Shown here: piece after piece, positions 6,842-19,667 of the stretch
Position numbering within the stretch: the first letter of the stretch is position 1
Layout: every line of letters begins with the position of its first letter
Program-made: the position numbers and the translations under genes
The notes under the pieces: model-generated
Told to the model about the DNA's origin: nothing
Database searches by the model: none
Seen by the model: the letters and a program-made list of their open reading frames with translations, nothing else
Assembly (NCBI GenBank): GCA_963717005.1
Contig: OY970324.1
Span: forward strand, 4,241,937-4,305,936
Source: an uncultured delta proteobacterium
GTDB taxonomy: Bacteria; Desulfobacterota; Binatia; Binatales; Binataceae
Direction of reading: 5' to 3'
DNA: 64,000 nt

Positions 6842-7639
6842 TTGGACAACGAAAACAAATCGCATCCTCTATATGACTCGACGGTCGCGCGATCGCGCGG
6901 TCACGTCGCGTCGTTCGCAGCCTCGATTGCCGCGCATGCGGCAATCGTTGCGTTGATCGTGTGTTTCGCGTCGCCGGTTGCCCGCGGGCATAGCGAGTGG
7001 GTGCTGGCGTATCTGGTCGAGGGCGCGGACGGCGGCATCGGAAGCAGGGGCGCGAGCGTGGCGCCGCACGCGGCGGCACGCTCGGCGCCGCCGAAGGCGG
7101 CGCGCAAAGCGCGACGGCGCGTCGAAGACGCGCCGCTCGCGGTCGCGAGCGTTGCGCCGCAGCGTCGGGTCGCGCTGACGCGACCGATCGCGCCGGCGCC
7201 TGACGCACCGGCCGTGTCGCATGGCGACAACGAAACGGCCGGTGCGCATCCCGCCACGGCCGGTTCCGGCAGCGGCGGGACGAACCGCGGCGCGGCAGGA
7301 TCGTCCGCCGGCGCCGCCAATCGCGGCGCCGGCGACGACCCCAATTCCGTCGCCCATGCCGACTACGCCAGCAATCCGCCCCCCATCTATCCCGAAGCCG
7401 CGCGCCGCCGCGAGCAGCAGGGCACCGTCACCATCAGGGTGCTGGTCGGCGCCGACGGCGCCGTCGAGCGCGCCGAGTTGGCCGAGTCTTCCGGCTTCGA
7501 TTCGCTCGACGACGCCGCCCTCGAAACCGTCCGTTCCCGTTGGCGCTTTGTGCCCGCGCGACACGGCGGCCTCGCGGTCGAAAGCTGGGTCCTGGTTCCG
7601 ATACGATTCGCCTTGCTCGAAGCCAGCGCCGTTCGCTGA
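6842..7639 (+). CDS. Energy transducer TonB-family protein (C-terminal TonB domain)
   Basis: N-terminal TM anchor, Pro/Ala-rich linker, and C-terminal YPEAARRREQQGTVTIRVLVGADGAVERAEL...WRFVPA. The start is uncertain. Confidence 0.7.
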   Translation: MDNENKSHPLYDSTVARSRGHVASFAASIAAHAAIVALIVCFASPVARGHSEWVLAYLVEGADGGIGSRGASVAPHAAARSAPPKAARKARRRVEDAPLAVASVAPQRRVALTRPIAPAPDAPAVSHGDNETAGAHPATAGSGSGGTNRGAAGSSAGAANRGAGDDPNSVAHADYASNPPPIYPEAARRREQQGTVTIRVLVGADGAVERAELAESSGFDSLDDAALETVRSRWRFVPARHGGLAVESWVLVPIRFALLEASAVR

Positions 7640-7708
7640 GGCCCCGACGCCAACCGTGCTTATCCCGCCAAGCCGTGATATAAGCCCCATCCGAGGAGGG
7701 TAGGAAAG

Positions 7709-8221
7709 ATGGCCTCGAAAGCATGTACTACTCTGGCGGTGGCTGGCTTGATGGTTGCCGGGGCGATTCTTGCGCCCATCCGCGCAAGCGCGATCGAAGT
7801 CAAGAAGGATCTCTACAACAATAGCGGTCCGGCGGGTCCGAGCGCCGCGGGCCCCGCCAGGGAAAATCCCATCCCAAAGGCGCTGGCCAGTCAGCTCAGC
7901 GACACTATCGCAAGTGAGTCCGACAGTTACGTCAGCGACGAGAGCGAGAAGAAGTCGTCGGGCAAGACCTACGTCGATCTCGAGCACGCGAAATTTCTGT
8001 ATCTGCCGACGATGAAGGCGGGGCATTGGACCGTACTCGCGAAGCTGCAGGCGGCCGAGTACACCCCGTCCAAGAGCGGCGAGGGCAGGGGCAGGCCGAC
8101 CGGCAAGCAGAAGATCCTGGTGTTCAACTACCGCCTCGACGGCAACAAATGGACCGAAGTCGAGCAGCCGAAGTGGGAAGACGTTGACGTCACCGGCACG
8201 GCGGCGGCAGCCCATAAATAG
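7709..8221 (+). CDS. Secreted hypothetical protein (signal peptide, 170 aa)
   Basis: N-terminal MASKACTTLAVAGLMVAGAILAPIRASA. Probably co-transcribed with the TonB-like gene. Confidence 0.55.
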   Translation: MASKACTTLAVAGLMVAGAILAPIRASAIEVKKDLYNNSGPAGPSAAGPARENPIPKALASQLSDTIASESDSYVSDESEKKSSGKTYVDLEHAKFLYLPTMKAGHWTVLAKLQAAEYTPSKSGEGRGRPTGKQKILVFNYRLDGNKWTEVEQPKWEDVDVTGTAAAAHK

Positions 8222-8717: not shown

Positions 8718-9875
8718 ATGACAACTGGAAAAATCGAACCCTTCCGTGTCGAGGTGCCGGTCGAAGTGCTGGCCGACTTGCGCGCCCGTCTCAGCAGCAC
8801 GCGCTTTCCCGACGAGGTGCCCGATACCGGCTGGGAGTATGGGACCAATCTCGCCTACCTGAAGTCGTTGGTCGAGTACTGGCGGACCAGTTACGACTGG
8901 CGCGCGCATCAACGCGAGATCAATCGCTTCGCGCAATTCAAGGCGAACGTCGATGGACTCGGAATCCATTTCATCCACGAGCAAGGCAAGGGGCCGAATC
9001 CGAAACCGCTTCTGCTGATTCACGGATGGCCGGGATCGATCTACGAGTTCATGCGGATTATCCCGATGCTCACCGATCCGGCTGCGCACGGCGGCAATCC
9101 GAAGGACTCGTTCACCGTGATCGCGCCGTCGCTGCCCGGCTACGGATTTTCAGATCATCCGCGGGCGCGCGCGATGAATATCCAGGCGATGGCGGATCTG
9201 TTTCACAAGCTGATGACCGCGACGCTCGGCTACCAGCGCTACGCGGTGCAGGGCGGAGACTGGGGCGCGGCGATTACCTCGCGAATCGGCGAAGTGCACG
9301 CCGACAGCGTCTTCGGCATCCATATCAATATGATTGCGATCGGTCCCGCTGAAGGACGCGGCGCGTCCGAACTGACGCCCGAAGAGAAAGTGTTTCTCGG
9401 CGACCTGGAAAAATTCCGCACCGCCGAGACCGGCTACCAATGGATTCAGGGGACCAAGCCGCAGACGCTCGCGTACGGGCTGAACGATTCGCCGGCCGGA
9501 CTACTGGCATGGATCGTCGAGAAGTTTCGCACCTGGAGCGATTGTCACGGCGACCTCGAGAAGAGCTTCACGCGCGATCAGATACTGACCAACGTGATGA
9601 TCTATTGGATCACGCAGACGATTAATTCCTCGACGCGCCTGTACTACGAGGCGCGGCATCATCCGTGGCGCCTGAAGCCGGGGACCCGAATCGAGGCGCC
9701 GACCGCGGTTGCGCTGTTTCCGGGCGAATTGGTGCGTCCGCCGCGCCACTGGGCCGAGCGCGTATATAATGTACGGCGCTGGACGCTGATGCCGAAAGGC
9801 GGACACTTCGCCGCGATGGAAGAGCCGGCCCTGCTCGCCGCCGACCTGCGCGAATTTTACCGGGAGGTGGGCTGA
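8718..9875 (+). CDS. Epoxide hydrolase (microsomal EH-like alpha/beta hydrolase)
   Basis: EH N-terminal domain (PFRVEVP..RFPDE) and HGWPGSIYEF oxyanion-hole motif. Confidence 0.85.
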   Translation: MTTGKIEPFRVEVPVEVLADLRARLSSTRFPDEVPDTGWEYGTNLAYLKSLVEYWRTSYDWRAHQREINRFAQFKANVDGLGIHFIHEQGKGPNPKPLLLIHGWPGSIYEFMRIIPMLTDPAAHGGNPKDSFTVIAPSLPGYGFSDHPRARAMNIQAMADLFHKLMTATLGYQRYAVQGGDWGAAITSRIGEVHADSVFGIHINMIAIGPAEGRGASELTPEEKVFLGDLEKFRTAETGYQWIQGTKPQTLAYGLNDSPAGLLAWIVEKFRTWSDCHGDLEKSFTRDQILTNVMIYWITQTINSSTRLYYEARHHPWRLKPGTRIEAPTAVALFPGELVRPPRHWAERVYNVRRWTLMPKGGHFAAMEEPALLAADLREFYREVG

Positions 9876-9935
9876 GGGTTTTCAGTTTCCGCAAACCTCG
9901 GTCCGGTTATTTCTTTTTCCTGGTCGTGGCGCGGG

Positions 9936-9999
9936 ATCCTGACCTCTCCCGCAGACACCGCTGCACGGCTTACGCCGACCTCTCCTCGGACAAGGAGGG
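9936..9999 (+). repeat. REP-like palindromic element, family 1, copy b
   Basis: TCCTGACCTCTCCC and CTCTCCTCGGACAAGGAGGG are shared with 4531-4590. It lies between convergent genes. Confidence 0.6.
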
Positions 10000-10006
10000 T
10001 TGGGAC

Positions 10007-10480
10007 TTACCAGCCGAAGAAATCTTTCGCCGCGACGAACTTCGCGACGCCGGCGGCTTCGCCGGCCAGGCGATCCACTTCCTGATCGCCGACCATTGTG
10101 GACGCGGTCAGATCGACGCCGTACATCTCGGCGAGTTCGGTGATCATGCCGCCCCTGGGCTTGCGGCATTCGCAGTTGTCGGCGTCGATGTGCGGGCAGA
10201 TTTGCCAGCCGGTCAGAATGTCGCCGAGCTGATGGTCGAGCTGCGCGAGCGCGGCTTCGACATTTTCCGCCTTGAGCCGGCCGCGTGCGATTCCCGCCTG
10301 GTTGGTCACCACGAACATCAGATGGTCGTGCAGCGGGCGCAGCTTTTCCGCGACGCCCGGCAGCAGCTCGATTACGATATTGCCGTTACTGTCGAGCGGA
10401 ATCTCGCGCGACTCGTTCAGCTTGACCAAAGTGCCGCCGAGGTCGAAGAACAGCGCCGCGTTGCCGTTCGGGTTGGCCAT
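10007..10480 (-). CDS. HAD-IIIA phosphatase, D-glycero-D-manno-heptose 1,7-bisphosphate phosphatase (GmhB)-like
   Basis: LFFDLGGTLV, VVTNQAGIARG, and the Zn-binding CxC..CRKP signature. Confidence 0.75.
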   Translation of the reverse strand: MANPNGNAALFFDLGGTLVKLNESREIPLDSNGNIVIELLPGVAEKLRPLHDHLMFVVTNQAGIARGRLKAENVEAALAQLDHQLGDILTGWQICPHIDADNCECRKPRGGMITELAEMYGVDLTASTMVGDQEVDRLAGEAAGVAKFVAAKDFFGW

Positions 10481-10495
10481 GAAAAAAGATCTCGC

Positions 10496-11866
10496 CTAGG
10501 CGTGGCGCCAGTCAACGTGATCGCGAACGTGCGCGAACACTTCGTCCAGGATCTCGACGCCCGCCTCGGCCTGCGCTTCGGTGATCACGAGCGACGGGTT
10601 GATACGAATCTTGGGGAAATAGGCCATCGTGACCAGCCCGCGCTTGAGGCATTCGGCGAAGATCAGCTCGGTGACTTTTTTGCCGAGCAGTTCCTTGGTT
10701 TCGAGATCGCGCACCAGCTCGACGCCTATCAGCAAGCCCTTGCCCCGCACGTCGCCGATAAATTCGTATTTTTCCTTGAGCTGCACCAGCCGCGACAGCA
10801 TCATCGCGCCGACCTTGCGCGAGTTCTCGACCAGATGCTCGCGCTGAATCGTGGCGATCGTTTCGGACACCGCGACCGCCGCCATCGGATTTCCGCCGTA
10901 GCTCGACGACGACGCGCTCGGCTTGCCGAATGGCTCCGCTTTGCCCAGCTCGTCGCTCAGCAACACGCCCGAGACCGGAAAGCCCGAGCCCATGCCCTTG
11001 CCGACGGTGACGATATCGGGGCGGGTGCCGCTATGCTCGACGCCCCACCATTTGCCGGTGCGGCCGAAGCCGGTGATCATTTCGTCGGCGATCAGCAGCG
11101 CGCCGAAATCTTTGGCGACCGACTTTACCGCGGGCAGCCAGTCGTCGGGAGGAATCACGTTGCCGGCCGTGCCCTGCATCGGCTCGGCGACGATTGCGGC
11201 GAGCGAGCCGCCGCTGCTCATCTTGATTTGCTGGCGCGCAAAATCGACGCAGTAAAGTCCGCAATCGGGATATTTCAGCTTGAACGGGCATCGGTAGCAA
11301 TCGGCGTAGGGCACCGTGTACTGGCCGCCTTGCAGCGGTCCGTAGCCTTGCTTCGATTCGTCGCCGATAAGGCCGAGCACACCGCCGGTCTTGCCATGGA
11401 AGCCGCCCCAGAAACTCACCGCCTCATGATGGCCGGTTGCGGAACGCGCCAGGCGCAGCGCGGCTTCGACCGCCTCCGCGCCGCCGCTATATAGATGAGC
11501 GCGAGTCAGCCCCGCGGGTGCGACTTCTGCCAGCGCTTTGAACGCAGCCGCGCGCTCTTTGGTGGCGAAGGTGCCGACGGTGAGCCGCGCCGCCTGCTTG
11601 GACAGCGCATTCGCCATTGCGGGATGCGCATGGCCGAGGCTCGCGACGGCGACGCCGGCGAAGAAATCGACGTAGGTGTTGCCGTCGGCGTCAATGAGCG
11701 TCGCGCCCTCGCCGTGATCGAAGGCGAGGCCTGCGAGCAGTGAAATTCGCTGGCGGCCGGGGGCGATATATTTTTGTTCGAGGTCGAAGATCTCCTTCGA
11801 CCTGGGTCCCGGAACGGATGTTTTGATCGAGGGAAGTTTTCCGTTGGTGCTTGTGGTGGTCTTCAA
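10496..11866 (-). CDS. Class III (aspartate-aminotransferase family) PLP-dependent aminotransferase
   Basis: 456 aa. AT-III fold with a PLP-lysine region (DEMITGFGRTGKWWG). Confidence 0.85.
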   Translation of the reverse strand: MKTTTSTNGKLPSIKTSVPGPRSKEIFDLEQKYIAPGRQRISLLAGLAFDHGEGATLIDADGNTYVDFFAGVAVASLGHAHPAMANALSKQAARLTVGTFATKERAAAFKALAEVAPAGLTRAHLYSGGAEAVEAALRLARSATGHHEAVSFWGGFHGKTGGVLGLIGDESKQGYGPLQGGQYTVPYADCYRCPFKLKYPDCGLYCVDFARQQIKMSSGGSLAAIVAEPMQGTAGNVIPPDDWLPAVKSVAKDFGALLIADEMITGFGRTGKWWGVEHSGTRPDIVTVGKGMGSGFPVSGVLLSDELGKAEPFGKPSASSSSYGGNPMAAVAVSETIATIQREHLVENSRKVGAMMLSRLVQLKEKYEFIGDVRGKGLLIGVELVRDLETKELLGKKVTELIFAECLKRGLVTMAYFPKIRINPSLVITEAQAEAGVEILDEVFAHVRDHVDWRHA

Positions 11867-11908
11867 TTGATAGCGTTCCGAATCCTTGTTTGAATTTGCG
11901 TCGCGATG

Positions 11909-12730
11909 CTAGCGCGCGCGGCCGAGCAGACTTAGCGCACGGCGCGCGATCGCGCGAGCGGCCGGTGCGCGCACCCGACTGTAGCTGGGCCAGTCGTTGA
12001 AATCGATAATCGCGAAACGATCGCCGCTCAGGACCGCGTCGCCGCCCCACGCCTGGAGACCGAGCGCGCCGGCGGCGGCAGTCGCTGCCTCCGAGAGCGC
12101 GCGCACCGCGGCTTCGGGGACTTCCTCGCCCTCGGGATGAACGCTGAAATGCGCGCCGCCGCTGACGCCGTAAAATTTTACGACGCGGCCGGCGACTTCC
12201 TGCTGCAGGTAGGCGAAGCGGACTCCGCGCCGCGTGAAGTCCGCGAGAATCGATTCGACTTCGGCGCGATCGGCCGCCCGCTGTACGTCCTCGGGCGCGA
12301 GTGCATGCAAGTCGCCGCGCTTGACGAATACCCCCGCCGACAAATCGAGGCCGGCCAGCTTGCGCGCATCGAGCGGCTCGTCGGCAGGTACCAGCGCGCC
12401 CGCGGGCGTGGGTACCCCGGCGCTCTCGAGTCCGGCGGCGAGCAAGTCGCGGTAGCAGTTGCGAATCGAGAGCGCGGAGTTGATAGAGATCGCGCCGGCC
12501 TGCTCGACTTCAGCCAGCCGCTTGAGCGCGCGCGGCCCCTGGCACATCGGCAGAACGAGATCGGCGCGTACTGGTGCGCCCGCGGCGAAGCTGGCCGCGT
12601 CCATCGCCTGGATCTCGACCCCTTCACGCTTCAGCTCGGACAAGACCGCGTCGAGAATCGCGGCGTCGGCCTCGACCTTGCCGGGCGAAAACTCAGGTTC
12701 CCGATAAATTCCCAAAGCTCGATTGCTCAT
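11909..12730 (-). CDS. ATP-grasp domain protein, resembling the inositol-polyphosphate kinase (ITPK1-like) branch
   Basis: 273 aa. Central VKRGDLHA and C-terminal IIDFNDWPSY are similar to the ATP-grasp Mg/ATP loop (IDINAFPGY type). The assignment is tentative. Confidence 0.5.
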   Translation of the reverse strand: MSNRALGIYREPEFSPGKVEADAAILDAVLSELKREGVEIQAMDAASFAAGAPVRADLVLPMCQGPRALKRLAEVEQAGAISINSALSIRNCYRDLLAAGLESAGVPTPAGALVPADEPLDARKLAGLDLSAGVFVKRGDLHALAPEDVQRAADRAEVESILADFTRRGVRFAYLQQEVAGRVVKFYGVSGGAHFSVHPEGEEVPEAAVRALSEAATAAAGALGLQAWGGDAVLSGDRFAIIDFNDWPSYSRVRAPAARAIARRALSLLGRAR

Positions 12731-13458
12731 GGCGTCTTCCGTATTGCGCGGCGTGCGGCCTCGAGGTCCGACGCTTCATCCACGTCGATCGTTCCTTGGA
12801 GCTCGATCGCATCGAGCCGCATCCCACGTGCGATTAGCAGCGCGAGGAAGCGGCGGAGTGCGTCAAGGCCGGCGCGGCGCGCGTCGGCGGCGTGATCGAA
12901 AATTCCGGTTGACAGGAAATAAACTCCCGCCGTCACGGTTGAAGTCTGACGGTTGCCCAGCCCGAGGATCAAGCCATTTTCTGTTACATCTGCAAAAAGC
13001 GGCCGGGCCTCGCCGCGCCATCGGGTGACGGCCAGCACGCCGGCGAGATTTTTCTCGCGGCACTCCTCGATTTTCCTGCGCGACTCATTAACAAAACGCG
13101 CGAGTTCACTCTGCGGAATTACGGCGTCCACCGTCGAGGCGATAAACCATCCCGGTTCGAGCACCTCGCCGAGCGCGAGCATCGTTTCCATCGAGTTGGC
13201 GGTATCGCGCACGACGAGACGAATCGGCGGCGCAATCTCGAGGGCAATTTTATTTTCCCCGGCGATACGCGCGGTCTCGGAGTTGATCACCGCGACCACC
13301 GACGAGGCGCCCGCGCCGAGCAGCGCGCGAGCCTGACGCGCGAGCATTGTCTCGCCGCCGAGCATGACCAGCGGCTTGGGGAGGTCGTCGCGGGTGGAGC
13401 TGCGCAGGCGTTCGCCGCGGCCGGCGGCAATTATCGCACCCTGTAATTCCTTCACCAT
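12727..13458 (-). CDS. Nucleotidyltransferase (sugar/cyclitol-phosphate cytidylyl- or guanylyltransferase, NTP_transf_3-like)
   Basis: N-terminal GAIIAAGRGERL matches the GxGxRL signature. Overlaps its neighbours by 4 and 7 nt, indicating an operon. Confidence 0.75.
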   Translation of the reverse strand: MVKELQGAIIAAGRGERLRSSTRDDLPKPLVMLGGETMLARQARALLGAGASSVVAVINSETARIAGENKIALEIAPPIRLVVRDTANSMETMLALGEVLEPGWFIASTVDAVIPQSELARFVNESRRKIEECREKNLAGVLAVTRWRGEARPLFADVTENGLILGLGNRQTSTVTAGVYFLSTGIFDHAADARRAGLDALRRFLALLIARGMRLDAIELQGTIDVDEASDLEAARRAIRKTP

Positions 13459-14180
13459 TGGATTTGCGCAATTTCATCGATACTTCGGATCAAGACGTCG
13501 GCGGCGGCAGAATCTTCACCGGGTCGCGGATCGGTGCGGAGCCATACCGTGCGCATTCCGAGTTTGCGCGCGGGCACGCAATCTTTTTTCAGCGAATCGC
13601 CGATCATCGCGGCCGATTCCGGGGCGCATTGTAAATTTTTAAGAGCGTGCTGGAAAATTCCCTCGTCGGGTTTGAAAATTCCGACGCGCGACGAATCGGC
13701 GACCGCTGCGAAAAATCGATCCAGCTTCGCCTCTTCGAGGATGCGATCGAGATTGCCGTAGAAGTTCGACACGATGCCCATCCTGAAACGGCTTTTGAGT
13801 GGGCCCAGAACCGCGCGGCTGTGCGCGAGACCGGCCGCCGTTTCGCGGACGAAGGAGTTGGTGACGGCCTCGACCAAGCGATGGCGTCCCGCAGCGCCGG
13901 AGTCGTCGAGCGCCACGCGCAGCAGGTCGGGACCGCTTTTGCGTAGGTATTCGAATTGGTGGCCGGCGAGAAATCGCACCAGGTCCGTCATCCCGAAGCG
14001 CGAGACTACGCGCGTTGCGCCGTAGCCGATTCGCGTCGCGTGATCGAAGGCGGGGTCGAGTTCGGCGCGCGCAATTTCGATTCCAGCCGCGCGGTAGCTC
14101 GACAGAAAGCGGTCAAGCCAATGCGCAGGCCCGTCAAGCGTGCCGCCGAAATCGAATAGCAGAGTGGTAATCGTGGCCAT
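13452..14180 (-). CDS. HAD family hydrolase (phosphatase)
   Basis: LLFDFGGTLDG motif I, with downstream SNF (motif II) and GDSLKKD (motif IV). Confidence 0.75.
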   Translation of the reverse strand: MATITTLLFDFGGTLDGPAHWLDRFLSSYRAAGIEIARAELDPAFDHATRIGYGATRVVSRFGMTDLVRFLAGHQFEYLRKSGPDLLRVALDDSGAAGRHRLVEAVTNSFVRETAAGLAHSRAVLGPLKSRFRMGIVSNFYGNLDRILEEAKLDRFFAAVADSSRVGIFKPDEGIFQHALKNLQCAPESAAMIGDSLKKDCVPARKLGMRTVWLRTDPRPGEDSAAADVLIRSIDEIAQIQW

Positions 14181-14369
14181 GAAACGGTCAGTTTACCAGC
14201 CCGAGTCGTCAGCCTCCAGTTTCGACGGGGTCAGGTGCCGCACCTATCAACAGCCGGGCTCATAATTGACGGTTGACGCTATCAGCGGGGCTACTTCCGC
14301 TGTGGTTTCCGCTATGTTACCGTTGCCGATCAATGATGGCGGTGGAAACCGGGCCCTAGTAAGACGACG

Positions 14370-15554
14370 TTGATTGAAACTGCCTTAATCGCCGCTCCTG
14401 ACCGCGCGGACAATGCGGTATTCGGCCGCCCGCTGTTAGAGCGGCTGATGATCAACTGCGAGCGCGCCGGGATTAAACGATTCGTCATCGCAGCGCCGCG
14501 TGAGAATTATTCGGACGTCGCGCGCGCGATGGGCCGGTTCAAAAATTTGGACTGCGTCTCGATGGTCGAGTCGTTCGACAAGATTCTGAATCCAACCGAT
14601 GCACAGGAATTGGGCATCGACCCGTCGTCGCCGTGCGTGTCTTTCTCGGGCAATCTGGTATTTGCGAAGTCTCAACTGAAGCAGATTCTCGACGCCCACG
14701 CTTCGAATCCGCAATCGGTACATCGGGCAGTCAGCACCGACCAGGACCGCGGCGGCGAAATTGCGACCGGACGAATCGCGGAGATCCTGAAGCGCGGCGG
14801 CATTTCCAATAGCGTCACGAGGCCGGCGGCGAGCCTGCTGCCTTTTGCGCTGAACGGGCGGCCCGAGGATCGCGAAGAAGCGGAGCTGCGGCTGGCGAAA
14901 TCGATTCGCGAGGAATCGGCGCATAAGGACGCGCCGATGGCGCGATGGGTGGACCGTAAGATTTCCTGGCGCATCAGCTATTGGCTCGCAACGCACACGC
15001 GCGCCACGCCGAACATGGTCACGGTTGCGAACACGATGTTCGGGATTGGGTGCGCGTGGATGTTCGCGGTTCCGAATTACTGGATGCGGCTGTTCGCCGC
15101 GATTTTCTTTTTGATCTCGATCACAATCGACGGGGTCGATGGCGAATTGGCGCGGCTCAAGATGGTAGAGAGCGATTTCGGCGGCCGACTCGACATCGCC
15201 ACGGACAACATCGTGCACGCCGCGGTATTCGTCGGCCTGCTGATCGGATGCTACCGGGTCGAGCACAGCCGCGCTTACCTGTACCTGATTCCGTTGCTGC
15301 TCGGCGGATTCGCAATGTGCGCTTACGCCACGTGGCGCGCCTTCGAGATAAGGGGCGCGCAGGCGGCAGCCTGGCTCGACAAAGTCGATCGATGGAGCGG
15401 GCGCGATTTCGCCTACCTGCTCGTGGTATTGGCCTTAATTAATCGGCTAGAGTACTTCGCCTGGGGGACGGCATTTGGCACCTATGTGTTTGCCTTCGTC
15501 CTGATTTGGATTACCGGCCGGACCGCGTCGTCAATGAAGACTGAAAGCCTGTAG
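14370..15554 (+). CDS. Fusion protein: N-terminal nucleotidyltransferase-like domain (signature degenerate) plus C-terminal CDP-alcohol phosphatidyltransferase membrane domain
   Basis: The C-terminal half has DGVDGELARLKMVESDFGGRLDIATDNIVH, which matches DG(x2)AR(x8)G(x3)D(x3)D. Several TM helices are predicted. In the N-terminal half the position of the GxGxR motif reads ALIAAPDRADN. Confidence 0.75.
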   Translation: MIETALIAAPDRADNAVFGRPLLERLMINCERAGIKRFVIAAPRENYSDVARAMGRFKNLDCVSMVESFDKILNPTDAQELGIDPSSPCVSFSGNLVFAKSQLKQILDAHASNPQSVHRAVSTDQDRGGEIATGRIAEILKRGGISNSVTRPAASLLPFALNGRPEDREEAELRLAKSIREESAHKDAPMARWVDRKISWRISYWLATHTRATPNMVTVANTMFGIGCAWMFAVPNYWMRLFAAIFFLISITIDGVDGELARLKMVESDFGGRLDIATDNIVHAAVFVGLLIGCYRVEHSRAYLYLIPLLLGGFAMCAYATWRAFEIRGAQAAAWLDKVDRWSGRDFAYLLVVLALINRLEYFAWGTAFGTYVFAFVLIWITGRTASSMKTESL

Positions 15555-15587
15555 GAAAGGAATCGAGGCCTGCATGGCGGAGGAAGT

Positions 15588-16919
15588 ATGAACGGCAAGA
15601 AGCCACGAATTCTCCTGGTGCAACCCACCACCGTCCATCTGGACGGCACACCGCACAAAACGCGCTGGCGGCTGATAATGGGTCTCATGATTCCGCTGAT
15701 GGCGGGACTGACGCCCGACGACTACGACGTGACGCTGTGCGACGAACGCCTCGAGGACATCAACTTCGACGGCGGATGGGACCTGGTCGGGATGACGACG
15801 ACGATCGGCGCGTCGCTGCGCGCGTATCAGCTCGGCGACGAGTTCCGCAAACGCGGCATCCCGGTGGTGTTCGGCGGATTCCATGCGACGCTGCAGACCG
15901 AAGAAGCGCTGCATCATTGCGACGCGGTGGTGAAGGGCGAGGCCGACCTGGTGTGGCCCGAGCTGCTGCAGGATTGGCGCGACGGCAAGCTCAAGCAGAT
16001 TTACAAAGCCGACAAGGTGCACGATCTGAAAAACCTGCCGCGCCCGCGCCACGAGCTGCTCAAGCTCAACCGCTACCTGTTCAAGGCGGTGCCGGTGCAG
16101 GCGAGCCGCGGCTGCCCGTATCGATGCTCGTTTTGCGAGATTCCGGTGTTCTACGACGGCGCGTATCGCACGCGTCCAATCGAGGACATCGTCGAGGAGA
16201 TCAAGCAGGTCATGAAGGTGACCGGCTTCAAGCGCTTCCAGTTTATCGACGATCAAATTACGGGCAAGCACAAGTTCGCGCGCGAGCTGTTCAAGGCGCT
16301 CGAGCCCCTCAACATCCGCTTCTCGTGCCTGTGGACGATCAACTCGAATCATGACGACGAGCTGCTCGACCTGGCGGCCAAGGCGGGAATCTTCCACGTC
16401 AATATCGGGGTGGAATCGATCAGCCAGGACAGCCTGCTGTCGATGAACAAGATTCAGAATCACGCGGGGCAGTACAAGAAGCTGCTCAAGAAGCTGGAAA
16501 AATACGGAATCTACTACTCGCTCAATTTCCTGTTCGGGCTGGAAGAAGATCACCCGGGAATTTTCGACGACACGCTGAAGTTCCTGCACGAGGTCAAGGC
16601 GCCCGAGGCGTTCTTCAACACCGTGACGCCGCGGGTCGGCACGCCGATGCGCACGCAGCTCGAGAACGAAGGCCGCGTGATAATCCCCGACGCCGACCTC
16701 TACACCAACAACTTCCGCTGCATGTTCGTGCCCAAGAACATGTCGCCGCAGGAAGTCGAGGAAGGCGTGTGGCGTTGCACCAAGGAGTTCTACTCGCTGA
16801 AGTCGATGTTCAAGCGGCTGCTGCTGCCGCCGGGCAAGTTCACCTGGCAGGGACTGACCGAGAACATGCTCTTCTATTGGGGCGCGAAGCGACAGATCGA
16901 TCCGGTTGATTATTATTAG
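15588..16919 (+). CDS. B12-binding domain radical SAM enzyme
   Basis: N-terminal Rossmann-like B12-binding region followed by CPYRCSFC (CxxxCxxC). Confidence 0.85.
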   Translation: MNGKKPRILLVQPTTVHLDGTPHKTRWRLIMGLMIPLMAGLTPDDYDVTLCDERLEDINFDGGWDLVGMTTTIGASLRAYQLGDEFRKRGIPVVFGGFHATLQTEEALHHCDAVVKGEADLVWPELLQDWRDGKLKQIYKADKVHDLKNLPRPRHELLKLNRYLFKAVPVQASRGCPYRCSFCEIPVFYDGAYRTRPIEDIVEEIKQVMKVTGFKRFQFIDDQITGKHKFARELFKALEPLNIRFSCLWTINSNHDDELLDLAAKAGIFHVNIGVESISQDSLLSMNKIQNHAGQYKKLLKKLEKYGIYYSLNFLFGLEEDHPGIFDDTLKFLHEVKAPEAFFNTVTPRVGTPMRTQLENEGRVIIPDADLYTNNFRCMFVPKNMSPQEVEEGVWRCTKEFYSLKSMFKRLLLPPGKFTWQGLTENMLFYWGAKRQIDPVDYY

Positions 16920-16938
16920 AGCATAGGCCAGTTCGGCT

Positions 16939-17253
16939 TTGATCCTGAAGACGCTCGCGGTCCTGGTGCTCGCCGCGGCACTCGAGGTGGGCGGCGATGC
17001 GCTAGTCCGCATAGGACTACATAGCTACGGCTACTCGCTCGCGGCGGGCGCGTTCGCGCTTTTCTGCTACGGGGTGCTGGTCAACCAGAGCGGCGTCGAT
17101 TTCAACCGCCTGATGGGCATCTACATCGCGGTGTTTTTCGTGGTGTCACAGGTAATCTCGCTGATTCTCTTCAAGCAAGTCCCCGACGACCGAATCCTGC
17201 TTGGCGGCGGCTTCATAGTAACCGGCGGCCTGTTGATTCTGTTGATGACGTGA
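16939..17253 (+). CDS. Small 4-TM membrane protein, YnfA/SMR-like (DMT superfamily)
   Basis: 104 aa with a TTG start. Hydrophobic, with a conserved Glu in TM1 (ALEVGGD). 20 nt downstream of the rSAM gene. Confidence 0.5.
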   Translation: MILKTLAVLVLAAALEVGGDALVRIGLHSYGYSLAAGAFALFCYGVLVNQSGVDFNRLMGIYIAVFFVVSQVISLILFKQVPDDRILLGGGFIVTGGLLILLMT

Positions 17254-17399
17254 CCGCGCCGCGAAACCACGGCAAACTTGCTAGAGCTGCCGCGGGTTTG
17301 AGGCGGCCACGGAGAGTATAGCGAGGTCAGTTGTTGTCGCTGCCAGAACCGGAACCGTTGCCGCCGTTTTCGTGGAAAAAATCGGTCCCTCGATCAGGA

Positions 17400-17633
17400 T
17401 TAGCGGGCAATGACGAACCCTGAGAGTTTGATCCGTTCGAACCCGCCGCCGGCCTGAGTCGAGGCTCCTTCGCTGCTAGGACTTTGCGTGGCGGTGTTCG
17501 ACTCCGAATTCACTGTATTGGCCTGCTGGTGGACGTTGTCACCAGTGTCTTGAGAAAAAGAACGTCCGCTGGATGCGACCAATAGGAAGGCTGGTCGTCA
17601 ACAGTGAAATACTAAAAAAGAAGCGGTTCATGA
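17400..17633 (-). pseudogene. Possible frameshifted small secreted protein (signal peptide MNRFFFSISLLTTSLPIG in one frame; S/T/Q-rich 60-aa ORF in the next frame)
   Basis: An ATG with a signal-peptide-like N-terminus at about 17630 runs into a stop after 31 codons. The adjacent frame continues as ORF 17400-17582. Confidence 0.25.
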
Positions 17634-17755
17634 TTTCCCTTCCCTATTGGTTACAGTTTCAAATCTTGGGCGGGCGGGCTCCTTGATAACGCGAATAGAT
17701 TCGAAATCGGAGTGCATCGGAGCGGCGTTCATCAAAACAAATGCTGATCCGCGCA

Positions 17756-18367
17756 TCAGAATAAATCGTCGAGTGCCAATGAATATTGGAAGCGGACGAA
17801 GCGATCGGCCGTGCCGTTCAGTTCTGCGCCAACGTCGAAGTCCAGAAGCTGCCTATCTGTTATCGTGCACTCGGCACCGCCGCCGACAGTCTGGCCGCCT
17901 AACGACTGATAAGAATAATTTCCGGTGTACTCTCCATACAGGCTGCCGCCAGAGTCGAGCTGCCTTTCGACAGTCAAAGTCGGTTCAGGGCCCGACCAAC
18001 TCGGAGAAGCCGTGCCATTAACGGTCCATCGGTCGTCGATCGGCTGTGACCAGGAGGGGACGTACGCAGAAGCAATGGAAGGATTGAAACCGCCGTTCCC
18101 TATTACCGGTCCGGTGCGATCCTGCCCACCCGCGCCCGGGATCGAAGCAGAGAAAGCGTTGCTCCCTGCTAGCGTCCCGGTGGAATCTAGCGAGCCTATG
18201 CTTGGCACAGAGGGAAGGCTATAAGAATTAGTCCGGATTCTCCGATGTGTGGTCCGATGACTGAAACTGGCGCGATAACCCATGTCGGCACTGTAGCCGC
18301 GGGCAAATCGACGCTCATGCCCCAAGCTACGGAGAGTCTTGCTGTCCAAAGAATCTCTCGAAACCAA
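17756..18367 (-). CDS. Hypothetical OMP-like protein fragment (G/S/T/Y-rich, C-terminal Phe)
   Basis: Alternating hydrophobic pattern and terminal ...FQYSLALDDLF typical of beta-barrel OMPs. No signal peptide, so possibly truncated or mis-started. Lower-GC region. Confidence 0.35.
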   Translation of the reverse strand: MVSRDSLDSKTLRSLGHERRFARGYSADMGYRASFSHRTTHRRIRTNSYSLPSVPSIGSLDSTGTLAGSNAFSASIPGAGGQDRTGPVIGNGGFNPSIASAYVPSWSQPIDDRWTVNGTASPSWSGPEPTLTVERQLDSGGSLYGEYTGNYSYQSLGGQTVGGGAECTITDRQLLDFDVGAELNGTADRFVRFQYSLALDDLF

Positions 18368-19667
18368 ACTCCTTTAAGGTCATCCTCACGCGATCCTGTT
18401 GCGTCATCTTTCGCGCGTTGGCGGGGCAAGCGGTGAGACAAGTTTCGTTTCCTGAGGTGCACGCGGAACAGGGGAGTTGATTGACAGAACACCCGCAGGG
18501 ATTGGTAAGACCCCCGGGTGTACATCCTATCGGGCCATAACAAAATCCTGTGCTGCCACCGCCGCCGGCGCTACCACCGCTACCACTTCCGCCACTAGAT
18601 GCAGCGTAAGCGCCGGCCGCGATCGCCCCACCCCCGAGTAAAACGCCACCTATGATCCAAGGAGCCCAGTTTGTGCCGCTGGAAGTTGATGTGCTCGATT
18701 GCACCGGTGGAAGCGGCGGAAAGTAGGGGGGCGGCGAAGAGGGTGGCGGATTCTCCGCAGTTTGCGGCGCACAGAACTGTCCGAGGCTGGTATTCAGGGA
18801 ATCAATGTCGGACATAATTCGCGACCGTGATTCAGAGAGTGAAGCAAGCGTGCGCTGGGCGTTGTTAATATCCTGCTGCGCAAGGTATCCCTTGCCCAAC
18901 GCGAAACCAACGTCTGTAACGACCTCTGTAACTTTGGTCGCGAGTATTGCCTCGGGTCCTAGAAGACCTGCCGCCGCGTCCGCAGTCTGGTTGCCGAGCG
19001 CGTCGTAGATTCCGCTATCGCCGAGGAATTTGTTGAATGCTTGGTACTGTTGGCTGATCTGCGTAGTTGCGGTCTGCAGTGACGTACCCAATGCGTTACC
19101 CGCCGTGTAGGAATCGCGGACGTTCTGCCAGTGGAGCGCGTATTCTTTGAGTCTCTTGAGCATTTCCACCGATGTAGTAATCGCGCTTTGGGAGACTCCT
19201 TTGGTAAGAAGGACTTGCTGCAGATTTTCCAGTTGGTTTGCTACCGCGCCGGATTGCGACGCGATTTCTGTGACCCCGGCGTCGGCCTGTTGGATCCCCG
19301 TCATGGCGAGATCGACTTCAGCTCTCGCTTTTTCCTCTATACCGCCTTGCAAAATGTTCTGCGTCCGCTTGATCGCATTGTCGATCGCGGGCAAACCAGC
19401 TTGGAGCCGATTGACAGCCGCAGTCATGTCTCCGCAACTGGCGGGCGCAACTGGTCCGCCGGGCGCCCCCGATTCCGGAGCGATCGGACTGCCGTTCCCG
19501 ATACCGGTGCCGCCGATCGACCCGCCTTCACCGGTGATCGGGGTGCCGTCCTGGGCGAAGACGTTAGTCAAGGGTGCGCCCATTGGCAGCATACATGCCG
19601 CCAAGATGAGACAGGTCAGTTTCTTGAGGAACCGTACCGATGCGCGTGACATTCTCAAGCTCGCCAT
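18327..19667 (-). CDS. Orphan secreted/membrane protein: signal peptide, about 330-aa helical Q/A-rich domain, Pro-rich linker, one TM helix, C-terminal 8-Cys cluster
   Basis: Strong RBS (AAAGGGGG) 7 nt upstream of the ATG. TM helix WAPWIIGGVLLGGGAIAAGAYAA. C-terminal CYGPIGC..CGC..CSAC..CLTAC. The local GC is clearly below the window average. Confidence 0.6.
   Translation of the reverse strand: MASLRMSRASVRFLKKLTCLILAACMLPMGAPLTNVFAQDGTPITGEGGSIGGTGIGNGSPIAPESGAPGGPVAPASCGDMTAAVNRLQAGLPAIDNAIKRTQNILQGGIEEKARAEVDLAMTGIQQADAGVTEIASQSGAVANQLENLQQVLLTKGVSQSAITTSVEMLKRLKEYALHWQNVRDSYTAGNALGTSLQTATTQISQQYQAFNKFLGDSGIYDALGNQTADAAAGLLGPEAILATKVTEVVTDVGFALGKGYLAQQDINNAQRTLASLSESRSRIMSDIDSLNTSLGQFCAPQTAENPPPSSPPPYFPPLPPVQSSTSTSSGTNWAPWIIGGVLLGGGAIAAGAYAASSGGSGSGGSAGGGGSTGFCYGPIGCTPGGLTNPCGCSVNQLPCSACTSGNETCLTACPANARKMTQQDRVRMTLKEFGFERFFGQQDSP

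Follow-up and report, generated by a model that had tools for sequence, protein, structure and literature searches.

An AF2299-type CDP-alcohol phosphotransferase from Candidatus Binatus with a putatively degenerate nucleotidyltransferase-fold cap, encoded next to an intact stand-alone nucleotidyltransferase

Judged from its sequence, the 394-residue fusion protein of Candidatus Binatus described here is an AF2299-type class I CDP-alcohol phosphotransferase of predicted activity that carries a nucleotidyltransferase (NT)-fold cap at its N-terminus. Taken as a whole, the explanation that we consider probable is that the cap is vestigial, and that the membrane enzyme receives its CDP-alcohol in trans from the NT encoded in its immediate neighbourhood. 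All coordinates refer to the window, which is the whole 64-kb stretch of DNA that was analysed, and the fusion gene is divided as follows.

14370..15554, plus strand: NT-like/CDP-alcohol phosphotransferase fusion gene (AF2299-type), 394 aa, TTG start
14370..14867, plus strand: N-terminal cytosolic NT-fold domain, residues 1-166, putatively catalytically degenerate (AF2, Foldseek, hhalign)
14382..14414, plus strand: ALIAAPDRADN, strand beta1 and remnant of the NTP-binding Gly-loop, residues 5-15 (hhalign alignment)
14868..15005, plus strand: linker and juxtamembrane helices, residues 167-212 (model helices 167-186 and 189-209)
15006..15551, plus strand: six-helix transmembrane CDP-alcohol phosphotransferase domain, residues 213-394 (Pfam, AF2 model)
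15129..15206, plus strand: catalytic motif D254-x2-D257-G258-x2-A261-R262-x8-G271-x3-D275-x3-D279 (translation)

The TTG is the first start codon past the in-frame stop at 14334-14336. A homologue search with the fusion protein returned 912 homologues, and its relatives amount to 4245 cluster representatives at E<=1e-3. About one third of the homologues among the matches listed are annotated with 365-374 residues and start with MINCERAG. These database gene calls, together with the lack of an obvious Shine-Dalgarno sequence in front of the TTG, would favour translation from Met27 (368 aa), which would leave strand beta1 and the loop remnant outside the protein. Such a start is nevertheless hardly credible, since the 25 codons upstream of Met27 are conserved as protein down to 50% identity while the DNA further upstream is not, and most of the loci shown, including all of the closest, have a TTG or GTG at the position of the TTG of the fusion gene or one codon ahead of it. 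Furthermore, codons 2-26 display a dN/dS of 0.045, and the AlphaFold2 model (pLDDT 88.4, pTM 0.82) places residues 4-8 as a central strand with a pLDDT of ~90. For annotation this means that the many database entries beginning at Met27 cut off the first strand of the NT-like domain.

The C-terminal half had been credited with a perfect CDP-OH phosphotransferase motif in the preliminary description of this DNA, and this claim is borne out. Residues 254-279 read DGVDGELARLKMVESDFGGRLDIATD and contain the complete motif D-x2-D-G-x2-A-R-x8-G-x3-D-x3-D, all eight positions of which are invariant among 26 diverse homologues (alignment A1), and Pfam PF01066 (CDP-OH_P_transf) matches residues 213-367 with 50.1 bits against a gathering cutoff of 22 (E 5.2e-13). 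The helix boundaries are taken from the AF2 model only, which predicts a juxtamembrane helix (189-209) followed by six transmembrane helices (214-233, 237-264, 269-298, 302-326, 330-356 and 360-393), and thus a class I architecture. In Foldseek, the modelled membrane domain superposes on AF2299, DIPPS and PIPS. The linker and juxtamembrane segment contains three invariant columns of alignment A1 (D187, R196 and S199), and it is in this region that the alignment of the fusion protein to AF2299 and DIPPS begins. The curated equivalog scores of the CDP-diacylglycerol lipid synthases are not reached (PIPSynth 46 vs 170, PgsA 26 vs 109, PssA 24 vs 107), and the same holds for the archaetidylinositol-P synthase model (51 vs a cutoff of 180).

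The best sequence match in the PDB is AF2299 of Archaeoglobus fulgidus (PDB 4O6M, 4O6N, 4Q7C), in which a "cytidylyltransferase-like" cap likewise precedes the membrane domain, with an E-value of 1e-13 (54.4 bits) for the single sequence and of 8e-38 (133.9 bits) for a profile. Foldseek aligns the whole chain to 4O6M/4O6N, the cytosolic NT-fold domain standing directly before the membrane domain in both, and an RDF motif near TM5-6 is common to the two proteins. In addition, a G-x-x-L-x-E-R helix motif occurs in the cap, in AF2299, in the IPCT of 4MND and in stand-alone NTs. AF2299 has ~9 native residues before EIYGEKLLGLTLRER, too few for a GxGxR...K loop, and its cap is reportedly catalytically inactive; the dead-cap layout already has a crystal-structure precedent in this protein. 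The two proteins differ in that their overall identity is ~17-18%, that the AF2299 cap has ~135 residues compared to ~165 in the fusion protein, and that AF2299 is archaeal and hyperthermophilic whereas the fusion protein is bacterial.

A second relative of known structure is IPCT/DIPPS (AF0263, PDB 4MND, NF041135), with an NT domain also fused N-terminally to a CDP-alcohol phosphotransferase, which scores 28.8 bits against the fusion protein with the single sequence and 99.1 bits with a profile. It is the top Foldseek match, the C-terminal halves align, the G-x-x-L-x-E-R helix is present as GxPLLER, and an 'L.M.aDHV' strand is common to IPCT and some clades of the family. By these sequence resemblances, the cap appears to descend from an IPCT-type NT. 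IPCT is an active enzyme with an intact signature, whereas the fusion cap has neither signature nor Asp nor substrate lobe. The NF041135 equivalog gives 75.4 bits against a cutoff of 580, with only residues 184-379, that is the C-terminal half, aligned, and no inositol-phosphate synthase (MIPS) is found in the 64-kb window.

That the N-terminus has NT-fold character had been proposed before, and several lines of evidence now agree with it. Residues 1-150 form an alternating beta/alpha domain in the AF2 model, for which Foldseek returns the 4MND IPCT-DIPPS first (7.5e-11), then AF2299 (4e-9) and then free cytidylyltransferases, the stand-alone enzymes KdsB, IspD, TarI and GlmU matching with E-values of 4e-5 to 1e-3. 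Profile-profile comparison of the cap with the stand-alone NT family in hhalign gives 95.8% probability and an E-value of 6.6e-9, and a profile search against PDB NTs likewise recovers the Rossmann-like NT fold. The size of 190 residues first given to this domain has to be corrected, as its globular part covers ~150-166 residues and residues 167-212 are linker and juxtamembrane helices.

The catalytic parts of an NT are largely missing from this fold. The reported replacement of the Gly-rich loop by ALIAAPDRADN is confirmed at residues 5-15, which align to IIAAGRGERL of the intact neighbour family in hhalign; AAPDRAD stands where the NT has AAGRGER, and P10, R12 and D14 lie opposite G13, G15 and R17. 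A deletion of ~12 residues takes out the R17...K28 segment (RL....PKPL), and with it both catalytic residues, Arg and Lys. In HMMER, N95 of the cap aligns with the metal-binding Asp of GlmU ('GD'), hhalign places D111 of the neighbour NT opposite L96, one residue from N95, and the fusion family has the consensus GNLV at this position, with the Asp not conserved (alignment A1). The alignment of loop, Lys and Asp that the preliminary description had called for therefore finds the first replaced, the second deleted with its segment, and the third occupied by N95. The substrate lobe is also missing from the cap, since the alignment to the NT family stops at NT residue ~113-134 of 243, and the DDEKPL, VTAGxY and IDVD motifs conserved in that family have no counterpart in the cap in either the family alignment or hhalign. 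The cap is missed by every NT model of Pfam and NCBIfam; the intact fused NT of one relative (L059) scores 62 bits in Pfam. Having lost these elements, the cap would be without NTP-binding machinery and would be unable to make a CDP-alcohol itself.

None of 88 diverged family representatives has a GxGx[RK] loop, and on this evidence the loss is an old, family-wide trait that is neither a recent inactivation nor peculiar to the gene at 14370-15554. The loop sequence at this position varies between clades. One finding named beforehand as speaking against a pseudo-enzyme domain was a family whose active members are loopless by nature; such a family exists as far as the missing loop goes, but there is no sign that its members are active NTs. 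An active, non-canonical NT that does not need the GxGxR...K loop might be proposed from the fact that the entire family lacks the loop and the domain is nevertheless under purifying selection. This is very improbable, as deletion has removed the Arg/Lys segment, the domain lacks a conserved metal Asp and a substrate-binding half, and an intact NT is almost always provided by a gene of its own. To our knowledge, no NT of this fold works without the Gly loop, the Arg/Lys pair, the metal Asp and the substrate lobe.

Codon-level comparison indicates that the cap is under purifying selection, with a dN/dS of 0.137 for the N-domain and 0.121 for the transmembrane domain, and in the family R25 is invariant and G19 and G34 are nearly so. 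The cap would thus be a vestigial NT domain, descended from an IPCT-like cytidylyltransferase, that lies on the cytoplasmic side of the membrane domain and may have been retained for a structural or ligand-binding role in the membrane enzyme. The low dN/dS of the loop remnant suggests that this segment matters, and non-canonical nucleotide binding is therefore possible. Rather than a passive scaffold, the cap could then be a ligand-sensing pseudo-enzyme whose binding of CTP, CMP or CDP-alcohol would control the membrane domain or the free NT, for which the inactive paralogue GMPPA, a regulator of GMPPB, provides a precedent. We regard this as unlikely: the very strong constraint on the loop remnant, the inheritance from active IPCT-type NTs of R25, which is invariant, and of G19, which is nearly so, and the presence of the GMPPA/GMPPB complex 7D74 among the Foldseek matches (rank 42) speak in its favour, whereas the acidic D11 and D14 stand where the phosphate-contacting Gly and Arg were, and the loop is not the same across clades. 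A sensing cap and a structural cap with trans supply of the CDP-alcohol are not mutually exclusive.

The presumed source of that CDP-alcohol belongs to a divergent operon upstream of the fusion gene, and the neighbourhood consists of the following features.

10007..10480, minus strand: HAD-IIIA (histidinol-phosphatase/GmhB-like) phosphatase, 157 aa (NCBIfam TIGR01656, 87.8 bits vs a cutoff of 84)
10496..11866, minus strand: class III (omega-type) aminotransferase, 456 aa (Pfam Aminotran_3, 311 bits)
11909..12730, minus strand: ATP-grasp family enzyme, 273 aa, overlapping the NT gene by 4 nt (profile vs PDB, Foldseek)
12727..13458, minus strand: stand-alone intact nucleotidyltransferase, 243 aa, presumed CDP-alcohol-forming partner (Pfam NTP_transf_3, NTP_transferase)
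13405..13440, minus strand: GAIIAAGRGERL, intact NTP-binding signature of the stand-alone NT, residues 7-18 (translation, family alignment)
13452..14180, minus strand: HAD-IA phosphatase, 242 aa, first gene of the divergent operon (Pfam Hydrolase/HAD_2)
14181..14369, no strand: divergent intergenic region with conserved blocks at 14278-14325 and 14344-14365 (alignment A5, 16 orthologous regions)
15588..16919, plus strand: B12-binding radical SAM enzyme, 443 aa, directly downstream of the fusion gene (Pfam Radical_SAM, B12-binding)
16939..17253, plus strand: small YnfA/UPF0060-like membrane protein, 104 aa, last gene of the plus-strand unit (weak Pfam/NCBIfam match)

The product of the stand-alone NT gene begins MVKELQGAIIAAGRGERL and matches NT Pfam families above their cutoffs, in agreement with the earlier statement that this gene keeps an intact NT loop. 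The invariant positions of its family include G13, G15, R17, K28, D111, D225 and D227. With the profile of this family (E < 1e-10) as the criterion, 56 of 80 related loci (Binatia, Syntrophobacteria, Nitrospira, Nitrospina, Elusimicrobia, Verrucomicrobia and others) have a separate intact NT no further than 10 kb away. The other 24 loci have no separate NT within this distance, and several of them, not all, lie on short contigs. In the Nitrospira loci the NT is directly upstream of the fusion-type enzyme on the same strand; a HAD-NT fusion is found in L048, and an NT and an ATP-grasp enzyme co-occur in P0368. In two relatives, L059 and L081, the fused NT is intact and no separate NT lies nearby; a metagenome scan for further intact-fused relatives yielded 11 loci, mostly short, and the complementarity is thus based on these two cases. 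The co-occurrence and the pattern of L059 and L081 support the split of labour suggested in the preliminary description, in which a degenerate NT domain is combined with a trans-acting NT. We infer that the free NT takes CTP as its substrate and delivers its product to the fusion enzyme, and the cap may serve as a scaffold and pair physically with the NT.

The substrate of the neighbouring NT leaves room for a different arrangement, in which it makes a sugar nucleotide for use elsewhere and the phosphotransferase takes CDP-diacylglycerol or CDP-glycerol from general metabolism. The nearest curated specificity models of the NT are uridylyltransferases (UDP-glucose, MurU and GlmU types) and IPCT, all far below cutoff, which together with the 24 loci devoid of a nearby NT is consistent with such an arrangement, as is the binding of CDP-glycerol by AF2299, to which no physiological reaction has been assigned (Clarke 2015). 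It is distinctly improbable, given that the co-occurrence extends across phyla and three head-group gene sets, that the NT adjoins the fusion-type gene on the same strand in Nitrospira, that the intact-fused relatives have no separate NT, and that one divergent promoter region is common to both operons in all Binataceae loci.

Under the preferred reading, in which the intact 243-aa NT would supply the CDP-alcohol in trans, the NT substrate may be prepared by the class III aminotransferase, the ATP-grasp enzyme and the HAD phosphatases of the same operon. The HAD-IA phosphatase gene overlaps the NT gene by 7 nt and adjoins the NT in all syntenic loci, and the HAD-IIIA phosphatase is found only in the Binataceae versions of the cluster (synteny table). 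The aminotransferase shows 49-60% identity across phyla within the module and falls below every NCBIfam equivalog cutoff. The 273-aa protein has no Pfam or NCBIfam match; its profile matches RimK (3e-6), PsnB (5e-6) and ITPK (2e-3) in the PDB, and Foldseek matches from a poor model (pLDDT 62.8) are all ATP-grasp enzymes. As kinase- and ligase-type enzymes (RimK, Ddl, PsnB, ITPK) all appear, the assignment is to ATP-grasp only. On the plus strand, the B12-radical SAM protein is 88-99% identical across Binataceae loci, and the YnfA/UPF0060-like protein is conserved only in the closest Binatus loci.

A regulatory RNA in the conserved 5' leader was considered and rejected, as an Rfam scan of 14100-14450 gave a chance miRNA match only and RNAalifold returned 4 pairs with -0.89 kcal/mol and no supported structure. 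Similarly, a sigma-70 promoter and terminator scan of 9800-17800 gave counts at shuffle background, with no site in the intergenic region. The long antisense ORFs at 9926-11494 (plus strand) and 15531-17012 (minus strand) were dismissed as high-GC artefacts since they overlap well-supported genes on the opposite strand.

The module conserved among related loci comprises the HAD phosphatase, the NT, the ATP-grasp enzyme and the class III aminotransferase, to which other lineages add a Gfo/Idh/MocA oxidoreductase, an inositol-phosphate synthase and a flippase-like protein. One co-linear operon (L045) contains HAD, NT, ATP-grasp, aminotransferase, Gfo/Idh/MocA, fusion-type enzyme and MIPS, and L033 has the same module plus LPG_synthase_TM and YdjC. 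A cultured bacterium, Desulfoferrobacter suflitae DRH4, is among the organisms that carry a related cluster, at locus L030. The Nitrospira loci combine 2-aminoethylphosphonate (AEP) genes with the NT, the fusion-type enzyme and LPG_synthase_TM, and the Nitrospina loci combine MIPS, the fusion-type enzyme, an IPCT-like NT and LPG_synthase_TM. MIPS is found in the loci of some distant relatives and is clear in L045 and L050, and fusions to LPG_synthase_TM occur in homologues that are 44-49% identical to the window protein. The Binataceae cluster has the B12-radical SAM gene instead of LPG_synthase_TM, Gfo/Idh/MocA and MIPS. No homologues of these three were found in the 64-kb window, and the inferences on head group and lipid therefore come from relatives.

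The module suggests an uncharacterised pathway of the Kennedy type with an amino-polyol as head group. The membrane enzyme would hand the phospho-head group of the CDP-compound on to a hydroxyl of the acceptor with release of CMP, and by analogy with the related loci the head group is probably an amino-polyol and possibly an inositol-derived aminocyclitol. In the eukaryotic Kennedy pathway, labour is similarly divided between soluble CCT/ECT and membrane CPT/EPT of the same superfamily, and CPT1/CEPT1 structures are weak PDB matches to the fusion protein. The eukaryotic CPT/EPT enzymes have ~10 helices and no NT-like cap, and their cytidylyltransferases belong to a different fold family.

A closer bacterial parallel is the Bacteroides vulgatus-type "alternative" inositol lipid cluster, with a free NTP transferase, a CDP-alcohol phosphatidyltransferase, a HAD hydrolase and a lysyl-PG-synthase-like gene nearby, for which a route of the Kennedy type has been put forward that leads from a soluble CDP-head group to a lipid, all functions being proposed only (Heaver et al. 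2022, PMC9246714). The fusion-enzyme clusters can be read in the same way; they differ in that the head group of the Bacteroides cluster is inositol, while the fusion cluster adds the aminotransferase and the ATP-grasp enzyme and, in Binataceae, the B12-radical SAM enzyme.

The acceptor is probably a membrane lipid and possibly a soluble polyol phosphate. The six-helix architecture is reported to be typical of soluble-acceptor enzymes (Clarke 2015), which argues against a lipid acceptor. A more far-reaching proposal, tentative and rather doubtful at present, is that the HAD phosphatase, free NT, ATP-grasp enzyme, aminotransferase, Gfo/Idh/MocA oxidoreductase and capped phosphotransferase, often with inositol-phosphate synthase and an MprF-like flippase domain, form an undescribed Kennedy-type route to a new head group, most plausibly an inositol-derived aminocyclitol phosphate on a membrane lipid, with the cap docking the free cytidylyltransferase and channelling the CDP-intermediate. 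Our literature search found no paper that combines the component families of the cluster, and nothing relevant on phosphonolipid. An aminopentanetetrol head group was dropped as unsupported, the literature giving lipid surveys only and no biosynthetic genes.

To conclude, the fusion protein represents a bacterial member of a large, uncharacterised AF2299-like clade. AF2299 itself is structurally famous, and neither its physiological reaction nor the function of its cap has ever been assigned. The finding of a degenerate cap where a separate intact NT is present, and of an intact cap where it is not, makes the role of the AF2299 cap testable, whether in docking, regulation or stability. The clade sits in interchangeable head-group sets, based on aminoethylphosphonate, inositol, or aminotransferase and ATP-grasp enzymes, often with a flippase-like partner. 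These gene sets point to a still unexplored variety of polar lipids or solutes among bacteria of abundant soil and sediment lineages such as Binatia, Nitrospira, Nitrospina and Syntrophobacteria.

The preliminary description of this locus, which read the fusion as a nucleotidyltransferase (NT)-like domain joined to a CDP-alcohol phosphotransferase, proved essentially right, and its open reading frame was borne out exactly as given. The genes around the fusion, in window coordinates, are:

10007-10480, minus strand: HAD-IIIA phosphatase
10496-11866, minus strand: class III aminotransferase
11909-12730, minus strand: 273-aa ATP-grasp protein, no Pfam match
12727-13458, minus strand: intact NT (the free NT)
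13452-14180, minus strand: HAD-IA phosphatase
14370-15554, plus strand: fusion (394 aa), TTG start, the first start codon past an in-frame TGA at 14334
15588-16919, plus strand: B12-binding radical SAM enzyme, 3' of the fusion

The CDP-OH phosphotransferase motif claimed for the fusion is present as the full class I signature D-x2-DG-x2-AR-x8-G-x3-D-x3-D (residues 254-279), and PF01066 (Pfam) matches residues 213-367 with 50 bits against a cutoff of 22. Named homologues belong to Candidatus Binatus or to MAGs labelled Acidoferrum or Acidoferrales, which places the window in a relative of Candidatus Binatus; orthologous loci show 84-88% identity. Many database gene calls for homologues and orthologues start at Met27 (368 aa; range 365-374 aa), which drops 14370-14447 and with it the first strand of the NT-like domain. 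The sequence further 5' lacks the protein-level conservation of the 25 codons preceding Met27, whose protein sequence (IETALI.AP.R..N.IFGRPLLERL) persists down to an overall identity of 50%. Because of this conservation, a TTG or GTG at the same position or one codon earlier in most loci shown (always in the closest ones), a dN/dS of 0.045 over codons 2-26 in six gap-free orthologues, and a high-confidence modelled strand at residues 4-8, the upstream TTG is the best start call.

The fusion and the five minus-strand genes are transcribed divergently out of one 189-nt intergenic region, and the HAD-IA, NT and 273-aa genes overlap by 7 and 4 nt. The 243-aa product of 12727-13458, described earlier as an intact stand-alone NT, begins MVKELQGAIIAAGRGERL and is indeed matched by the NT families PF12804 and PF00483 (Pfam). 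The 273-aa protein is an ATP-grasp enzyme, either a kinase or a ligase, as seen from profile matches to RimK (3e-6), PsnB (5e-6) and ITPK (2e-3) and from fold matches, which are ATP-grasp proteins without exception and come from a poor model. A small YnfA-like membrane protein is also encoded downstream of the fusion, and the flanks are unrelated: genes for G6PD, a luciferase-like oxidoreductase and an epoxide hydrolase border the cluster on one side, those for PanC and PanB on the opposite side. The B12 radical SAM protein is far more conserved than its neighbours, with 88-99% identity across Binataceae loci, as against 50-88% for the transferase and 43-87% for the HAD protein in these loci, and it falls under the cutoff of all curated families, including HpnJ, PhpK-type P-methyltransferases and ladderane-type lipid radical SAM enzymes.

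The cap (residues 1-166 of the fusion) finds no match among the Pfam and NCBIfam NT models; three independent lines show that it has the NT fold proposed for it. An AlphaFold2 model of the fusion, built from 26 diverse homologues (pLDDT 88.4, pTM 0.82), places an alternating strand/helix domain at residues 1-150; two long helices (167-209) and then six membrane helices come after it. Foldseek ranks the bifunctional IPCT-DIPPS enzyme 4MND first in the PDB (E 7.5e-11), followed by AF2299 (4e-9) and, further down, by free-standing cytidylyl- and uridylyltransferases, among them KdsB, IspD, TarI, GlmU and CobY. In profile comparisons, the cap alone recovers GlmU (9e-4) and KdsB (2.5e-3) from the PDB, and it aligns with the family profile of the intact neighbour NT over 109 columns (hhalign, 95.8% probability, E 6.6e-9).

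Whether this domain is CATALYTICALLY dead was judged by alignment to the intact neighbour NT and to GlmU. The segment ALIAAPDRADN, which had been noted as replacing the Gly-rich loop, occupies residues 5-15, and hhalign pairs its AAPDRAD with AAGRGER of the intact NT, so that P10, R12 and D14 stand in place of G13, G15 and R17. A gap of about 12 residues in the cap removes the RL....PKPL segment with the catalytic Arg and Lys. In the HMMER alignment, SGNLVF of the cap pairs with YGDAPL of GlmU, which puts N95 at the position of the metal-binding Asp, and in the hhalign alignment D111 of the neighbour NT falls one residue off N95. GlmU-type enzymes depend on both the metal-binding Asp and the Arg/Lys pair. 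The cap alignment ends near residue 134 of the 243-aa NT, and the conserved substrate-lobe motifs DDEKPL, VTAGxY and IDVD have no counterpart in the cap. As a positive control, a verrucomicrobial relative (L059) with a 36% identical membrane domain retains IIIAAGRGSRL...PKPL, and its fused NT is detected by Pfam NTP_transf_3 with 62 bits. The conclusion that the cap makes no CDP-alcohol is thus strongly supported.

This state is shared by the family. At E <= 1e-3, an exhaustive profile-free search recovered 4245 cluster representatives, of which 111 reach E <= 1e-30; among the best 150, 88 align from the cap start, and none of these carries GxGx[RK] in the cap (0/88). The best sequence match among solved structures is AF2299 of Archaeoglobus fulgidus (4O6M, 4O6N, 4Q7C), with 54 bits by single sequence and 134 bits by profile, as compared to 29 and 99 bits for IPCT-DIPPS. 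AF2299 chains have only about 9 native residues ahead of EIYGEKLLGLTLRER, which leaves too little space for the signature loop. The original AF2299 paper of Sciara in 2014 reportedly described the domain as non-catalytic. The loss of the Gly loop was earlier taken as a sign of an inactivated enzyme; since none of the 88 representatives has the loop and the architecture has already been solved, the fusion is not newly inactivated but a bacterial member of the AF2299-like architecture. According to Clarke et al. 2015 (PMC4634129), Af2299 binds CDP-glycerol, neither it nor a second enzyme treated alongside processes lipids, and enzymes with six helices act on soluble acceptors.

Across relatives, identity to the window protein is lower in the cap than in the membrane domain (15-81% versus 31-87%), while dN/dS among close orthologues indicates similar purifying selection (0.137 versus 0.121). 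R25, in the G-x-x-L-x-E-R helix of the cap, is invariant; G19 and G34 come close to invariance. The helix recurs in AF2299 (GLTLRERI), in L059 (GITLLERT) and in free IPCT-like NTs of Nitrospina and Zetaproteobacteria loci, and the IPCT domain of 4MND has an Arg at the equivalent of R25; on these shared residues, the cap looks like a descendant of an IPCT-type NT.

The proposal that the inactive domain is paired with a trans-acting cytidylyltransferase agrees with the synteny of 80 loci encoding fusion relatives, in which a separate NT is present in 56 of the 80 (NT family profile, E < 1e-10). In L059 and L081, the two relatives whose fused NT is intact, the available DNA shows no separate NT, whereas three loci with a degenerate cap (L083-L085) do have one. 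Nitrospira loci carry an intact 239-aa NT directly 5' of the fusion on the same strand. The block of HAD, NT, ATP-grasp and aminotransferase genes lies beside the fusion in all Binataceae loci with enough flank, and also where the fusion is just 29-44% identical, in Desulfoferrobacter suflitae, Syntrophobacteraceae, Syntrophorhabdales, Desulfobacterales, other Binatia, Elusimicrobia and Verrucomicrobia. Members of the cluster are also found fused: HAD to NT (L048, 14016-15434), NT Pfam domains in a 454-aa protein covering 77% of the ATP-grasp query (P0368), radical SAM N-terminally to the transferase (P0191), and the transferase to the flippase-like LPG_synthase_TM domain (Pfam-confirmed in P0125, P0129 and P0173). 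The LPG_synthase_TM-fused homologues share 44-49% identity with the window protein. Judging by length and sequence only, P0135 and P0178 appear to be of the same kind; P0231 holds two transferases in tandem, and the 785-aa ORF of L039 has an N-terminal extension resembling that of P0191.

The transferase clade occupies exchangeable head-group contexts. In Nitrospira sp. NS4 (L074, 4751-11869), a phosphonopyruvate/sulfopyruvate decarboxylase subunit, a PhnW/AepZ-type 2-aminoethylphosphonate aminotransferase (356 bits versus a cutoff of 361), an intact NT, a capped transferase and LPG_synthase_TM form an operon that is a candidate pathway to a 2-aminoethylphosphonate lipid. In Nitrospina (L050), the transferase lies between inositol-phosphate synthase and an IPCT-like NT, with LPG_synthase_TM also present, and in Elusimicrobia (L045) one co-linear operon encodes HAD, NT, ATP-grasp, aminotransferase, Gfo/Idh/MocA oxidoreductase, transferase and inositol-phosphate synthase. 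LPG_synthase_TM and YdjC are additionally found in L033 and L040, and MlaC and an outer-membrane efflux protein in Desulfoferrobacter. Of 53 non-Binataceae loci, 37 have a homologue of LPG_synthase_TM, versus none of 27 Binataceae loci (L001-L027); the window has no homologue of it, of inositol-phosphate synthase or of Gfo/Idh/MocA, and carries a radical SAM gene in their place. Taken together, inositol-phosphate synthase, an IolG-like dehydrogenase (below cutoff) and an aminotransferase suggest that the head group may be an aminocyclitol. Among published systems, the nearest is the unconfirmed 'alternative' inositol lipid cluster of Bacteroides vulgatus, which has a free NTP transferase, a CDP-alcohol phosphatidyltransferase, a HAD hydrolase and a lysyl-PG synthase homologue nearby and was proposed to work in a Kennedy-pathway-like manner (Heaver 2022).

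Several further features were observed around the cluster. The divergent promoter region contains two conserved non-coding blocks (14278-14325 and 14344-14365), one a GTAGC-N3-GCTAC palindrome, imperfect in the window, followed by CGTTACCGCTATGTTACCGTG, and the other GAAACCGGGTTYTAAnAAGAC immediately ahead of the TTG start. They have no Rfam match and no supported RNA fold, and may represent an operator or a translation-initiation region of unusual type. None of the 80 related loci has a counterpart of the epoxide-hydrolase gene left of the cluster (8718-9875, plus strand), and in several sister genomes a Gfo/Idh/MocA oxidoreductase lies 6-7 kb 5' of the transferase instead, which places a synteny break near position 10000. 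Two minus-strand ORFs lack a Pfam match: 18327-19667 (446 aa), with an apparent signal peptide and Gly/Ser/Pro-rich low-complexity stretches, and 6869-8215 (448 aa), which is overlapped by two long plus-strand ORFs and may not be a gene. The very long ORFs 9926-11494 (plus) and 15531-17012 (minus), antisense to the aminotransferase and radical SAM genes, were rejected as typical high-GC shadow ORFs.

In the proposed pathway, the aminotransferase, the ATP-grasp enzyme and the HAD phosphatases would supply a phosphorylated amino-alcohol, which the free NT would join to CTP; this assignment of CDP-alcohol synthesis is made because the transferase family needs a CDP donor and because of the synteny. 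The membrane domain, with its complete set of catalytic residues, would then move the phospho-alcohol onto an acceptor hydroxyl with release of CMP, and a terminal phosphate might be removed by a HAD phosphatase, as is known from the DIP, PG and PI pathways. The cap is kept as part of the membrane enzyme, where it may form an AF2299-like structural lid on the active-site entrance, sense a ligand or dock the free NT. To conclude, the finding is real, yet it concerns a bacterial member of a solved architecture, and what remains of interest is that degenerate caps and free NTs systematically go together, and that the fusion is surrounded by an uncharacterised, widely distributed head-group cluster.
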